In this document: positions 11,647-57,804 of the stretch, in pieces
Position numbering within the stretch: position 1 is the first letter of the stretch
Layout: each line of letters opens with the position of its first letter
Notes under the pieces: model-generated
The model's database searches: none
Told to the model about the DNA's origin: nothing
Seen by the model: only the letters and a program-made list of their open reading frames with translations
Sequence record: OQ599310
Length of the DNA stretch: 64,000 nt
Direction: 5' to 3' (one strand)
Source: Escherichia phage 55
Program-made: the position numbers and the translations under genes

Positions 11647-11675
11647 GTCAAATTACCATGTAATAAATATAGTTA

Positions 11676-11683
11676 TATTTATA
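11676..11683 (-). promoter_or_regulatory. late promoter TATAAATA for uvsW
   Basis: TATAAATA on minus strand 30 nt upstream of uvsW start. Confidence 0.6.
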
Positions 11684-11696
11684 ATGAGGAAATACC

Positions 11697-15207: not shown

Positions 15208-16491
15208 TTATTCATCTATAATAATTTTAGGCAATTTAACACCTAGTAAAACAGACAAGTCTGAACGTCCTGCCATTTTATCCATGTCCCCGCCATCAAT
15301 TATTCTCGCTTCTTTTTCGTCTTTTGCTACTGTGTAAGGATTTGCTGATAAAGCATATCTAACCAATAATCCGATAGACGGTTGCAAGCTTTCTGGATCA
15401 ACTACAACTTTAAATGCACCAACATGTTCCGGGTCATCTAAATCCACTCCTTCGGTGTATGGAGCATAAAAGATGGACCCTACAATTTCTTTTTCGCCGA
15501 GATTTTCTACAACACCCACAATAACATAATCTAACGGGCTGTTGGTATCGCAGTAAAGAGGTAATCCATTTGCCAAGAATCCATAAGCATTTTGTGAAAG
15601 ATACTTGTCATCTTCTGGCTTATGTTTTAACCAACCGGAAGCAGCAAGAATAGCAGCTGCACGAGCTGAGGCTACACAAAACGTTGCAGTATAAGTTGTC
15701 TCTTTTTGAATGTGCGATACCATTTCACACACCATTCGATATAATGAACGACCTGCTTCTGGAGCGGATGCATAGCTCAAGTCAATAAATCCAGTGTCAG
15801 TAATTCCAGTAACTTTATAACGTTTCGATACAGTAATTAAAGACTGAAGAATATCTTTATTAATTTCATCAGCCATTTCAGTAGCAAGCAAATCTTCTAA
15901 GAAGTTAGGGGCATCAAATCCATTCGCTTCCAAATCTTGCGCTAATTCAACCGTGAGACCAGTTTTAAGTTTACGAGATTTGACTGAAGTTTGCCATTTA
16001 TTAATCTGGAATCTTGCATCAGAAATTTCGCTACCAGAGCTTTCAAATTTGCTTGTTACCGCTGCATCTGAAAATAACCGTACCTTTAAATGAACGACTG
16101 CAATCTGAAGAGCTAATTCTAGATCACTTTCTTGAATATCTGCAAATGGTGTATCTTCTAACACCTTATAGACGATATTATTATATTTGAAAAAATCACC
16201 TTTATTTAGTGTGGCTTTTGATTCTTCTGTGAGCTCAGTAATTTTTTCTCGGTCTACATATCCAGCTTCGCCTGCATAAGTAGCACCAGTTTTAAATGTG
16301 AATTCGTTATCTGGGTTAAGATATTTGATACCATAAAAAGCAGCAACAGGTTGATTAGTTCTTTGTGTTGCTACAATGTCAGAATATATTAATTTAGTCG
16401 TAGCGCGAGTCAAAGCAACGAGATTTGGGCGACCGATTGAGTTGCTAGTAGACGTTGTAGATTCACGCAATAATTTTTGGATTTTACTCAT
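15208..16491 (-). CDS. 24: head vertex protein gp24
   Basis: 427 aa; capsid-protein fold paralog of gp23; synteny. Confidence 0.9.
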   Translation of the reverse strand: MSKIQKLLRESTTSTSNSIGRPNLVALTRATTKLIYSDIVATQRTNQPVAAFYGIKYLNPDNEFTFKTGATYAGEAGYVDREKITELTEESKATLNKGDFFKYNNIVYKVLEDTPFADIQESDLELALQIAVVHLKVRLFSDAAVTSKFESSGSEISDARFQINKWQTSVKSRKLKTGLTVELAQDLEANGFDAPNFLEDLLATEMADEINKDILQSLITVSKRYKVTGITDTGFIDLSYASAPEAGRSLYRMVCEMVSHIQKETTYTATFCVASARAAAILAASGWLKHKPEDDKYLSQNAYGFLANGLPLYCDTNSPLDYVIVGVVENLGEKEIVGSIFYAPYTEGVDLDDPEHVGAFKVVVDPESLQPSIGLLVRYALSANPYTVAKDEKEARIIDGGDMDKMAGRSDLSVLLGVKLPKIIIDE

Positions 16492-16518
16492 TGCATTTTT
16501 TCCTTATGTGATATAGAT

Positions 16519-16526
16519 TATTTATA
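16519..16526 (-). promoter_or_regulatory. late promoter for gene 24
   Basis: TATAAATA on minus strand 28 nt upstream of start. Confidence 0.65.
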
Positions 16527-16543
16527 AAGATTGTTTACAACGT

Positions 16544-16572
16544 ATTTGGTATGTGATACTATAGACTTATCA
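16544..16572 (+). promoter_or_regulatory. early promoter for the ORF between genes 23 and 24
   Basis: GTTTACA -35, 17 nt, TGTGATACTAT extended -10. Confidence 0.6.
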
Positions 16573-16592
16573 ACTACAGAGGAGTAAACAAA

Positions 16593-16862
16593 ATGACTAA
16601 AGCACGTTTCTTACGAGATACTTTAAAAGTTCTAGAAGCTGAAGCAGTTAAGTTAGTAGAAAAATATGGTGCAAAAGTTAATGGTAATGCCTTCAACAAA
16701 GTATGGATGAAAGTTGATTCTGAAGCTCGAGCTAAAGGTTATTGGGCCACTGATAAACTTGCATCATTCAAAAACAAAGACGGTTCTCCGGCATATGTCC
16801 AAGAAGGTATGCCTAATTGGCAAAATATTTTGAAAACTTACATCGAAATTGCACAGAAATAA
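16593..16862 (+). CDS. small hypothetical protein inserted between genes 23 and 24
   Basis: 89 aa; early promoter 16544-16572 and RBS GAGGAG. Confidence 0.65.
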   Translation: MTKARFLRDTLKVLEAEAVKLVEKYGAKVNGNAFNKVWMKVDSEARAKGYWATDKLASFKNKDGSPAYVQEGMPNWQNILKTYIEIAQK

Positions 16863-16865
16863 AAC

Positions 16866-16890
16866 CAAAAATGGGAGACCGAAGTCTCCC
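16866..16890 (-). terminator. terminator downstream of gene 23
   Basis: GGGAGAC cgaa GTCTCCC; T-run on minus strand. Confidence 0.7.
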
Positions 16891-16919
16891 ATAAGGTTAT
16901 GTATTTTAACGTTAAAGCA

Positions 16920-18488
16920 TTAAATTCCTTTAACGTAGACGCGTCTAAAGTAAGCGTTCTTACCAAGGCTGTTCAGGATAGACGGCATACCGGACTGGAT
17001 GCGAGCACCTGGAGCCTGCAGGGAACTTTCAGCAAACGGGTTAACACCGATACCGTAACGAGTTTTAAAGCCCATTACCGGCTGGAAGTTCTTAGGATCG
17101 GAACCACGCAGTGGGGTAAGTGCAACGTAAGGAGCATAGTAAATACCTGCATCCATTTCGTTAGCGCCTTTGTAACCAACGGTGAAGTAATCCTGTTTAG
17201 CATACTGGTCGATGTATACGCGGTATTTACCACCAAGTACACCGGCAAATACAGACTTAGTAGTGTCGGTATTAAACCCAGAAGCCAGACCCTGTGCAGC
17301 GTAAGAAATACCAGTATCAACTGAAGCCAGTACGTTAACTACGTTACGGGAAGCGATAATGAAGTTACCTTCACCACGACCGGTTTGACGAGCAATTTCA
17401 ACTGCTTCTTTATCAATCTGGAACAACAGAGATTTAAAGCTTTCACCGGCCCAACGAGCACCACGGATATCAATCGGGTCCTGGAAGTCAAATACACCGG
17501 CTTTAGAACCCGGAGTCAGGGTCATACCAGATTTACCAACCTGTGCAGAGTAGTTAATCCAATCAACAACTTCACGGTTGATTTCTAGCATAATTTCCGT
17601 AGCCAGAATACCGCTCAGTTCAGCATCAGCATCCATACCGTGTACTGCACGGAGGTCTTGTGCTAATTCGATAGAGTAAGCAGCTTTCAGCTGGCGAGAT
17701 TTAGCTTCGATAACTTGTTTATCGATACGGAAGCCCATTTCATTCCATGGGTTATCGGTAGAACCGTTGAAACCTTCCTGGAGTTCAGCGATAGAAGTAG
17801 CCATACCTTCAGCGATTTCTACCAGTGCACCAGCTTCCATTTGTTTCTTAACTTCTGCATCTAATTTAGCTGCATCAGTTGCACCAGAATCAAGTGTTAC
17901 GACAGCAGAAGCTTGCAGATATACAGTACCAGTTTCTTGGAAGAAGTGAGTATAGATATCACCTACAACAGTAGTAGTGTCAGCAGCCAGAGCTGGGAAT
18001 TTCTTAGCAGCACCCTGACCAGAGAACATCGCGTCTGGGGCATACATCGGATGGAAAGCTTCTTTAGCGCCAGCAGCGATAGGGTCTTTACCATATACTG
18101 CACGGAGAGCAAATACCTGACCGGTCGGGCTGTTCATAGGCTGAACACCACAAATATCAAAAGCGATCAGATTAGGAATAGCACGACGAACCATACCCAT
18201 AACTGCCGGCCCAATTTGGGTTACTGCGCCAGAGGTTTGACCTGCTGCGATGTTCTGAGCATTATAACCATGGTCACCACCAATTTCAGCTTCGGTCAAG
18301 AAAGAACCAAATGCCTGAGCGATTTTCTCGTCTTTATATTCAGGGGATACTTCGAAATCTTTTTCCTGGTTTTCGAAGATTTTAGCGATAATAGCCTGCT
18401 TGCTATTAGCGATTTCCGGCAGGCCTTCACCTTCCAGCAGTTCTTTCCATTTGTCTACGAGCTGAGCTTTAGTTTTGATAGTAGTCAT
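16920..18488 (-). CDS. 23: major capsid protein gp23
   Basis: 522 aa; near-identical to remembered T4 gp23. Confidence 0.97.
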   Translation of the reverse strand: MTTIKTKAQLVDKWKELLEGEGLPEIANSKQAIIAKIFENQEKDFEVSPEYKDEKIAQAFGSFLTEAEIGGDHGYNAQNIAAGQTSGAVTQIGPAVMGMVRRAIPNLIAFDICGVQPMNSPTGQVFALRAVYGKDPIAAGAKEAFHPMYAPDAMFSGQGAAKKFPALAADTTTVVGDIYTHFFQETGTVYLQASAVVTLDSGATDAAKLDAEVKKQMEAGALVEIAEGMATSIAELQEGFNGSTDNPWNEMGFRIDKQVIEAKSRQLKAAYSIELAQDLRAVHGMDADAELSGILATEIMLEINREVVDWINYSAQVGKSGMTLTPGSKAGVFDFQDPIDIRGARWAGESFKSLLFQIDKEAVEIARQTGRGEGNFIIASRNVVNVLASVDTGISYAAQGLASGFNTDTTKSVFAGVLGGKYRVYIDQYAKQDYFTVGYKGANEMDAGIYYAPYVALTPLRGSDPKNFQPVMGFKTRYGIGVNPFAESSLQAPGARIQSGMPSILNSLGKNAYFRRVYVKGI

Positions 18489-36254: not shown

Positions 36255-36282
36255 ATACAAAAATGGGAGCCCGAAGGCTCCC
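36255..36282 (-). terminator. terminator downstream of gene 8
   Basis: GGGAGCC cgaa GGCTCCC then T-run on minus strand. Confidence 0.7.
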
Positions 36283-42653: not shown

Positions 42654-42655
42654 TT

Positions 42656-51185: not shown

Positions 51186-51259
51186 GGCCCTGTAGCTCAA
51201 CGGTTAGCAGCAGTCCCCTCATAAGGGAAAGGTTACCAGTTCGAATCTGGTCTGGGTCA
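51186..51259 (+). tRNA. tRNA with CAU anticodon (Met or lysidine-Ile type), imperfect stems
   Basis: Hand-folded cloverleaf: T-arm ACCAG/TTCGAAT/CTGGT, loop CTCATAA; one acceptor mismatch, 3-bp D stem, one G-A in anticodon stem. Confidence 0.55.
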
Positions 51260-51265
51260 TATATT

Positions 51266-51342
<77 letters not shown>

Positions 51343-51360
51343 ACTTTAAGTGAGGAAAAT

Positions 51361-51705
51361 ATGAAAGGCAATGTTTATCTGGTAGTTCATGATTTAACGT
51401 TTTATTTTAACGAATATGATACAGTTATTTCTCATCGATTGATTAATTCGCTGTATCAGCATGCCGATTACATCTATGTTCAAAATGAATTTGGTCATTG
51501 GAAGTTCATTAAAAACCGTTCCGGGTTAACTAGTTTTGAATACTTTGACCGTAAAGACCTTTTAAACGAAATCCCATTGCAACATCGGTTTCAGAAACGC
51601 GAATCATTATATTATTGCCGTCATATACCAAACGCCGAATGTGTTGATGAAGCAATTAATCTATGGCGTAGACGTAGAGAACAAATTGATGATATGCCAA
51701 AATAA
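51361..51705 (+). CDS. hypothetical protein
   Basis: ATG 51361 after GAGGAAAA RBS; ORF-track start 51313 lies inside tRNA-Arg. Confidence 0.6.
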   Translation: MKGNVYLVVHDLTFYFNEYDTVISHRLINSLYQHADYIYVQNEFGHWKFIKNRSGLTSFEYFDRKDLLNEIPLQHRFQKRESLYYCRHIPNAECVDEAINLWRRRREQIDDMPK

Positions 51706-51719
51706 GAAGCCGGGTCGCT

Positions 51720-52006
51720 ACCGGCAAGACGTCGGACTGATGTTCCCTGAGTAAGGACTGGTCTTAATAAATCTTTATGATTCGTTAATATCCCCTTACA
51801 TCACAGCAGAAACGGCGCACAGAATTATCGATTCGAGGAAATATCTTTGCCGTAAGCCGAGTAGCGTTTTTGACGGAACGTTCGGATATGGTCGAGATAT
51901 GGCCTTTTAAAATATTGAGTAGCGTCAACTACTTAATAACCGGGTTCAAATCCCGGCGTTTCGTACAAACACTTACCTAGTAGGTGGAAACCCCGACAAG
52001 GTATAT
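51720..52006 (+). ncRNA. candidate small stable RNA region (T4 rnaC/rnaD-like?) with tRNA-like T-arm
   Basis: ~290 nt without ORF in the tRNA neighbourhood; hairpin GCCGG..CCGGC at 51710-51725; T-arm CCGGG/TTCAAAT/CCCGG at 51940-51956; no canonical cloverleaf. Confidence 0.3.
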
Positions 52007-52785: not shown

Positions 52786-52813
52786 TTTACTTCTCCTTGA
52801 GGTATGATACTAT
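52786..52813 (+). promoter_or_regulatory. early promoter
   Basis: GTTTACT ... TGATACTAT; ends in TAGACCTATC repeat. Confidence 0.55.
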
Positions 52814-52843
52814 AGACCTATCAAAACAAATGAGGAAAACATT

Positions 52844-57737: not shown

Positions 57738-57766
57738 TTTACAAGGTCTGTAGTTGTTGATACTAT
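57738..57766 (+). promoter_or_regulatory. early promoter with stem-loop
   Basis: TTTACA, 17 nt, TACTAT; GGTCT..AGACC. Confidence 0.6.
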
Positions 57767-57804
57767 AGACCTATCAAAACAAATGAGTGAATGGAGATAT
57801 AAAA

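Follow-up and report, generated by a model that had tools for sequence, protein, structure and literature searches.

A small putative early gene between capsid genes 23 and 24 of an RB69-like phage, and the varying contents of its slot among T-even phages

The gap between the genes of the capsid vertex protein (gene 24) and the major capsid protein (gene 23) is filled in phage T4 by segD, a GIY-YIG gene, so that an earlier note on the present DNA was right to place a seg-type homing endonuclease there in T4. In Escherichia phage 55, the same gap holds an open reading frame of 89 codons, hereafter ORF89, which runs against both of its late neighbours. What is this gene, does it descend from an endonuclease, and how did it come to lie between two capsid genes? 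We addressed these questions in a stretch of 64,000 nucleotides of this phage (sequence record OQ599310), which we refer to as the window.

The first 25 kb of the window match the Mosigvirus phages LH01, JS09 and Shf125875 over their full length with 98% identity, and the window belongs to an RB69-like T-even phage of this genus. It extends from alt at its left end to the vs genes and is reversed relative to the T4 map, so that its minus strand encodes the late structural genes and its plus strand the early ones. The slot is flanked on the left by gene 24 (15208-16491, minus strand), an ORF of 427 aa named gp24 in close relatives, and on the right by gene 23 (16920-18488, minus strand), an ORF of 522 aa named gp23 in relatives. 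The window and T4 each have a single gene 24; two tandem copies (24a and 24b) lie beside the slot in JS98, VR7 and two metagenomic contigs (L012 and L021).

ORF89 and its expression signals

The plus-strand ORF reported in the earlier note is real. It begins with ATG and occupies positions 16593-16862, stop codon included, and its residues 1-89 match positions 1-90 of the protein family phrog_6003 (E = 2.1e-45). Genes 24 and 23 are both on the minus strand, which makes it antisense to its late neighbours, as had been described. The start coordinate of 16544 given for it did not hold, as this position cuts into the promoter spacer. We postulate that ORF89 is very probably a genuine, dispensable early accessory gene of the RB69ORF188c / phrog_6003 family, which would encode a small basic effector and form the cargo of an exchangeable cassette in the 23/24 gap.

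A promoter scan and a motif search both point to a putative early-type sigma-70 promoter ahead of the gene (G-TTTACA-N17-TG-n-TACTAT, plus strand, 16533-16562, with TTTACA from 16534), which supports the claim that ORF89 has an early promoter of its own. The window has 13 matches to the pattern GTTTAC-N17-19-TAnnnT, where 3.1 are expected; no shuffle reached this number, and 12 of these 13 sites are on the plus strand, the early strand in the window. Several of them have the module TGATACTAT in common. The -10/start module of the ORF89 promoter (16554-16573, GATACTATAGACTTATCAAC) has copies with 95% identity at 52805-52824 and 57758-57777, both of which belong to other early promoters. The ORF89 promoter is kept in JS98, W143, LF82-5 and IME08 and is collinear with the region upstream of T4 segD, and the comparison of slots revealed no early-type promoter in empty ones. 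A search with the late-promoter motif found no plus-strand late promoter upstream of ORF89. Judging from these sequence features, namely the plus-strand promoter family, its conservation across genera and the lack of a plus-strand late promoter upstream, early expression of ORF89 is likely.

Back to back with the early promoter lies the late promoter of gene 24 (TATAAATA, 16519-16526, minus strand), an exact match that precedes the ATG of this gene by 27 nt and is present in all phages aligned; sites of this sequence number 19 in the window against 7.7 expected. On the plus strand, a Shine-Dalgarno sequence (GAGGAG, 16579-16584) can be read directly 8 nt 5' of the ORF89 ATG. Host sigma-70 RNA polymerase would thus transcribe ORF89 from its own early promoter, and the strong ribosome-binding site would drive its translation.

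Downstream of ORF89, a terminator scan identified a hairpin with a 9-bp stem and a UUCG loop (16871-16892), for which the folding energy is -18.9 kcal/mol as minus-strand RNA and -17.4 kcal/mol as plus-strand RNA. Only in the minus-strand direction does a U-run follow, and we therefore assign the hairpin to gene 23 as its terminator. Identical hairpins occur in JS98, W143, LF82-5 and L012, and a copy with 92% identity lies elsewhere in the window, between genes 8 and 9 (36258-36282). Together with the copies of the promoter module, this means that both boundaries of the cassette are motifs repeated in the genome. The promoter -10 module and the hairpin are the only parts of the slot that are repeated in the window, which contains no paralogue of ORF89. 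Many database records of other phages likewise had a second site with a match to the slot.

The ORF89 transcript would head towards the 3' end of gene 23, where the hairpin of that gene would at least stabilise its 3' end. Since the hairpin has no U-run on the plus strand, the early transcript may also run on antisense into gene 23. This raises the question of whether the function of the locus resides in its RNA, with early readthrough of a weak plus-strand hairpin yielding an antisense RNA by which the production of capsid protein would be delayed or tuned. T4 is known for early "anti-late" transcripts and keeps the promoter even though the ORF is gone, both of which speak for such a role, as does the missing U-run. 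Nevertheless, the sequence, length, charge and fold of the ORF89 protein are conserved down to 30% identity, members of the family are also found at loci that are not opposite capsid genes, and most relatives lack the promoter and the ORF alike. We consider an RNA function improbable on these grounds, and an antisense effect could be a side effect of the ORF89 transcript.

A family of small basic proteins found within and outside T-even phages

ORF89 was already known as a gene, which first received an annotation in the RB69 genome, as RB69ORF188c (NP_861878.1), and is annotated in more than 100 others. The copy in PhAPEC2, for example, is annotated as similar to RB69ORF188c. RB69ORF188c and its orthologues all carry the label "hypothetical protein", and a full-text literature search for the name RB69ORF188c found no paper on it. 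The RB69 gene and its Mosigvirus orthologues are the same gene as ORF89, with 98-100% protein identity in many of them and with the same slot, strand, promoter and hairpin; the protein itself is 100% identical in at least 18 GenBank phages, and about 120 of them have the gene with an identity above 95%. ORF89 as such is therefore an ordinary gene, annotated many times in GenBank, and its presence in the window, as originally stated, matters little. What the comparison of phages adds concerns the slot and the family.

The homology search proposed in the earlier note for the 89-aa protein has now been run, and it led to phrog_6003 and RB69ORF188c and to no Pfam family. Using ORF89 as a tblastn query, we retrieved 240 phage records, about 120 of which had more than 80% identity (many of them 100%) and the other 120 of which had 30-38%. 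Over these records and 30 metagenomic clusters, spanning 30-99% identity, protein length is kept at 83-93 aa. The family is small, comprising seven clusters among 1.84 billion representative proteins and 30 in a profile search of a 5.8-billion set. Distant members occupy the same slot in the same orientation in JS98 (orf173), VR7 (ORF190c), Tequatrovirus W143 and two metagenomic T-even contigs. One further member, a 90-aa protein from a 173-kb contig (P0006), bears the name "NADPH-dependent curcumin reductase CurA", an evident annotation error in view of its size and context.

The family also occurs outside the T-even phages, at about 30-40% identity and in two settings. In contigs of approximately 46-50 kb related to the Klebsiella phages vB_KsaM-C1 and MEW1, its members directly follow the primase gene (L017/L018, 3001-3252), and in phages of roughly 145 kb, seen in a 141-kb contig related to Acinetobacter phage ABPH49 and Serratia phage Kashira, a member lies amid small unassigned ORFs (L019, 3001-3267). 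The role of the protein is therefore tied neither to the capsid genes nor to SegD. Two genes upstream of the family member in L017 is a gene for a T5orf172/CapR-domain protein, a possible endonuclease. Within the T-even phages, the ORF of Escherichia phage mogra (MN850579, 65653-65918) is frameshifted into two pieces, one of them annotated as a 51-aa protein. This frameshift and the empty slot of most Tequatroviruses indicate that ORF89 is dispensable.

Protein modelling with AlphaFold2 from a 25-sequence alignment gave five models of ORF89 in agreement with one another, with pLDDT values of 93-95 (94.8). The predicted fold has helices at residues 3-25 and 31-48, a beta hairpin at 52-60/66-70 and a last helix at 76-88. 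Residues M1, K3, F6, G31, N32, N35 and Q70 are invariant in the alignment and N30 is nearly so, and 24 of the 25 family members have a pI of 9.2-9.9. The product is thus predicted to be a soluble, basic, small helical domain of about 10 kDa. ORF89 had no match among Pfam, NCBIfam and PADLOC families. Foldseek against the PDB returned nothing at E <= 0.001, a sequence profile search of the PDB returned nothing, and the only return of a fold search in BFVD was a member of the ORF89 family; no informative structural relative of the modelled fold was thus found in either the PDB or BFVD.

Two candidate relatives were set aside. The Pfam family DUF4859 reached E = 0.003, below the cut-off, through three near-identical members of the 25, and we regard this match as noise. 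The search of the 1.84 billion proteins also returned P0013, a metagenomic protein of 655 aa with six tandem repeats, five of which match residues 40-70 of the ORF89 profile (E = 1e-5 overall). The common motif is W-x-T-[DE]-K-L-A-x-[FY]-N-G-K-[DN]-G-x-P-A-Y-[VI]. The match covers some 30 residues of a longer repeat unit, and the repeats are presumably cytochrome-b5-like; we regard this as a local motif similarity rather than homology, and probably a coincidence.

A small basic protein encoded between genes 23 and 24 might be expected in the phage head, either as an internal protein or as a capsid accessory, and ORF89 does have a weak match to a PHROG family of "internal virion protein" (E = 0.09). 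We find this very improbable, since the promoter of ORF89 is of the early type and the late-promoter motif is missing near it on the plus strand, and the N-terminus of the family alignment displays neither a conserved Leu/Ile-x-Glu protease-cleavage site nor a capsid-targeting motif. Furthermore, most Tequatroviruses, which have the same capsid, lack the gene, and homologues in other phages adjoin replication genes. Our preferred reading remains that of an early accessory protein. Its size, charge and gene class suggest that it might bind a host or phage macromolecule, either a nucleic acid or an acidic protein, and it would then be one of the many small early proteins of T-even phages that act in host takeover or counter-defence. 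As a well-folded orphan present in three unrelated groups of phages, it is a reasonable candidate for early-effector screens.

Homing endonucleases: the window and the T4 sites

Is ORF89 what is left of a Seg-type (GIY-YIG) endonuclease? Its position and orientation are those of T4 segD, and a BLASTP comparison with SegD gave one local match of 17 residues (E = 0.022 for this single comparison). Profile-profile alignment of the ORF89 family with the Seg proteins by HHalign gave a probability of 0.1%, and ORF89 matches neither the GIY-YIG or SegE_GIY-YIG families of Pfam, both T4 SegD and the LF82-5 protein discussed below doing so, nor any other nuclease family of that database. The family also forms a compact, confidently folded domain of constant length, its gene is intact beside a full SegD-like gene in phages LF82-5 and IME08, and it occurs in phages with no seg gene nearby. 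We thus attach almost no probability to descent from an endonuclease, a reading which BLASTP, HHalign and Pfam refute at the level of sequence and which the earlier note had named as the result that would overturn its own.

Endonucleases were searched for in the whole window with all 15 homing endonucleases of T4 and one SegD-like protein as queries, using phmmer and two home-made HMMs on the 930 stop-to-stop ORFs with 30 aa or more, and tblastn on the DNA. No relative of the 15 T4 enzymes was found in the window, the best value (E = 0.003) falling on an antisense fragment of 32 aa. As a control, most of the Seg and Mob queries recovered five to six paralogues each in T4. The GIY-YIG HMM had no match in the window; phmmer, tblastn and the HNH HMM gave nothing better than E = 0.003 for similarity to MobA-E or I-TevIII or for an HNH domain. 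Pfam detected no nuclease domain in ten unassigned ORFs of the window, and Rfam no intron. The claim that the window is devoid of GIY-YIG and HNH-type ORFs is thus borne out by these searches.

The sites at which T4 carries endonuclease genes within the range of the window are those of segE (inh/uvsW), segD (23/24), segC (5.1/5.3) and segB (between tRNA-Arg and tRNA-Ile). The earlier note was correct as to the absence of endonucleases from the loci it listed, and misplaced two of its three gene names: the gene that T4 carries at inh/uvsW is segE, and the place of segF is soc/56, which the window does not include. The uvsW/inh junction, placed by ORF coordinates and the T4 map, consists of a 50-bp gap (11647-11696). 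The segC site, which that note did not mention, is also unoccupied. There, the ORF list, the JS09 annotation and the T4 map place the 5.4/5.1 junction at 42654-42655, where the two genes abut with no room for an ORF and where T4 has segC and 5.3.

The tRNA and stable-RNA cluster (51186-51965, plus strand), delineated by ARAGORN, Rfam and blastn with T4 rnaC and rnaD, comprises tRNA-Met, tRNA-Arg, an ORF of 114 aa, rnaD and rnaC, with no segB. tRNA-Met and tRNA-Arg are 6 nt apart. The homologue of rnaD (51702-51820) has 84% identity to T4 and that of rnaC (51828-51965) has 97.8%. A 94-nt "tRNA-Lys" called by ARAGORN at 51873-51966 was rejected, as it has no Rfam support and is the 3' part of the rnaC homologue. 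The 114-aa ORF (51361-51705, plus strand) is RB69ORF150c-like and has no Pfam domain; it occupies the space from tRNA-Arg to rnaD, its stop codon overlapping the beginning of the latter. In T4 this site measures only 1-2 nt, and segB flanks tRNA-Arg on its opposite side.

That RB69-type phages are poor in homing endonucleases was already reported in 2006: putative mobile elements were listed for RB43 and RB49 and none for RB69, and T4 was concluded to carry many more (Nolan et al. 2006, PMC1524935).

States of the 23/24 slot and exchange of its contents

A query spanning the ends of both capsid genes allowed us to read the content of the slot across phages, and four states were distinguished. 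Most Tequatroviruses, as well as relatives infecting Salmonella, Klebsiella and Morganella, have an empty slot, and the match then comprises about 85 bp beyond the two capsid-gene anchors. In fHoEco02, for example, the late promoter is directly followed by the terminator hairpin, with the stem-loop some 20 bp from the promoter. In the second state, found in the window, JS98, VR7 and W143, the slot contains a gene of the ORF89 family alone. In the third, a family gene is followed 3 nt downstream by a SegD-like gene, as in IME08 (Dhakavirus) and LF82-5 (Mosigvirus), and in the fourth, segD is present alone, as in T4, T6, PST and others. The word "inserted", applied to ORF89 in the earlier note, is apt, given a gap of only about 85 bp with abutting late promoter and terminator in most Tequatroviruses and several other genera. 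The comparison thus indicates a cassette, running from the promoter and ribosome-binding site to the hairpin, that entered an ancestrally empty gap. Meanwhile, the view of the ORF as an alternative to an endonuclease fails, because in LF82-5 and IME08 a family member lies directly upstream of a SegD-like gene.

The orf173 of JS98, ORF190c of VR7 and orf166 of IME08 resemble ORF89 in family (30-38% identity), slot and orientation, and have homologous promoters and hairpins. These alleles of Dhakavirus and Gaprivervirus nevertheless form a divergent class, with a SegD-like gene behind some of them and never behind alleles of the window's class. The SegD-like endonuclease of LF82-5 has 57% identity to T4 SegD and copies of at least 80% identity in 38 records, most of which probably have the same arrangement of a family gene with the SegD-like gene 3 nt further on. 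None of the approximately 120 alleles of the window type is linked to an endonuclease.

LF82-5 (PV660449; L009, 1898-2990) provided insights into how the contents of the slot may change. When compared to positions 16489-16922 of the window, its flanks are 95-100% identical in 100-bp blocks, and identity collapses exactly between GAGGAG and the hairpin. Within these limits, its cargo consists of a JS98-type allele, which has 32% identity to that of the window and is also found in Tequatrovirus W143, and of the SegD-like GIY-YIG gene. The latter is situated at the stop codon of the family gene, and TATAGAAACAAGAATGGGAGAC resumes unchanged after it. LF82-5 looks like a cassette replacement that was caught in the act, and is possibly a product of homing. 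The alignments show the cargo of the slot to be an exchangeable cassette with short conserved regulatory sequences at its two ends, where recombination probably moves it between phage genera. In some phages this cassette carries a SegD-like gene directly behind the family gene, and the window has the endonuclease-free version. For T4 specialists, this clean natural exchange of cargo within an otherwise conserved capsid operon is of modest value. What our comparison adds is the position of its boundaries, one of them at the ribosome-binding site that closely follows the promoter and the other at the hairpin, together with the four states of the slot and the presence of the family in unrelated phages.

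Such a cassette is reminiscent of the PeSL cassettes, in which a variable, non-essential ORF lies between a TTTACW-N17-TAYWAT early promoter and a GC-rich stem-loop; PeSL motifs within conserved core regions accompany plastic, non-essential genes (PMC2839356, PMC4122927). As in PeSL cassettes, the promoter and the stem-loop of the slot are both repeated elsewhere in the genome, and the differences between LF82-5 and the window start and end at the slot motifs or within about 20 nt of them. The canonical PeSL differs in being a single composite of stem-loop and promoter, whereas in the slot the promoter (16533-16562) and the stem-loop (16871-16892) flank ORF89 and, unlike in a canonical PeSL, the stem-loop doubles as the terminator of gene 23. 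Neither of the two PeSL papers (PMC2839356, PMC4122927) mentions the 23/24 slot, RB69 or JS98. Alternatively, the boundaries of the cassette could stem from the repair of an endonuclease cut instead of shuffling mediated by promoter and hairpin.

This leads to an alternative in which the locus is mainly a recipient site for SegD-like homing, where the enzyme of a co-infecting phage cuts the endonuclease-free cassette and leaves a JS98-type allele together with the endonuclease. LF82-5 displays exactly this replacement in a Mosigvirus backbone, and an endonuclease gene that begins where the family gene stops, with TATAGAAACAAGAATGGGAGAC unchanged after it, is what is expected of a homing insertion. 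The distribution of endonuclease genes fits as well, with none of about 120 window-type alleles linked to one and 38 records carrying a SegD-like gene. However, the capsid genes on either side of the slot in LF82-5 show no tract derived from a donor, and homing accounts for the movement of the cassette, not for the role of ORF89. Among the alternatives to an early accessory gene, it is the only one with appreciable support, and we hold it to be possible although rather unlikely.

The earlier note implied a contrast between ORF89 and T4, which our comparison contradicts: segD is likewise antisense to the capsid genes and lies behind a collinear, homologous promoter and leader. The region upstream of segD (L006, 7207-7326, minus strand) is collinear with positions 16489-16610 of the window and with the upstream regions of the family. 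In all of them, the start of gene 24 is followed by TATTTATA, TTTACA, a spacer of 17 nt, TATTAT with a TG extension, the leader and TAAAATG, and the ATG of the ORF89 family aligns with Met4 of the annotated T4 SegD. The two loci thus have the slot, the antisense orientation, the late promoter, -35, -10 and leader, and the terminator design in common. They differ in that T4 encodes an endonuclease of 223 aa, as against a non-nuclease of 89 aa in the window, and lacks the ORF89 family in this slot. Based on this collinearity, T4 looks like a derived state, with segD placed directly behind the promoter and leader of the family. In a previous review, segD stood out as the only endonuclease gene of T4 to run against the genes around it, and a promoter specific to segD had yet to be identified (Edgell et al. 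2010, PMC2988022). The comparison of slots suggests an origin for this promoter and ties the uncharacterised ORF89 family to SegD-type endonucleases.

Tentatively, and with no more confidence than we give to homing alone, these observations may be joined in a single scenario. The 23/24 slot would be a homing arena, and the ORF89-family gene its ancestral resident and the host gene of SegD-type endonucleases. An endonuclease would have inserted at the stop codon of the resident, where the two are probably translationally coupled, and the pair would spread into endonuclease-free phages such as phage 55 by replacing their allele, a process in which LF82-5 would have been caught. In T4, the resident would have been lost at a later stage, leaving segD joined to the early promoter and leader of the deleted gene, and this would account for the segD promoter that the 2010 review could not find. 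Independently of this scenario, the protein would be a new small basic effector of the early phase that has travelled widely, among T-even phages, Klebsiella phages of roughly 48 kb and phages of roughly 145 kb.

The slot may also have been entered by endonucleases in another genus. KP15-like Klebsiella phages (phiKp_19, LC768482, 173431-174370) encode a Seg-like protein with 46% identity to that of LF82-5, and some 170 bp separate its gene from the 3' end of gene 23, which suggests an independent colonisation of the slot.
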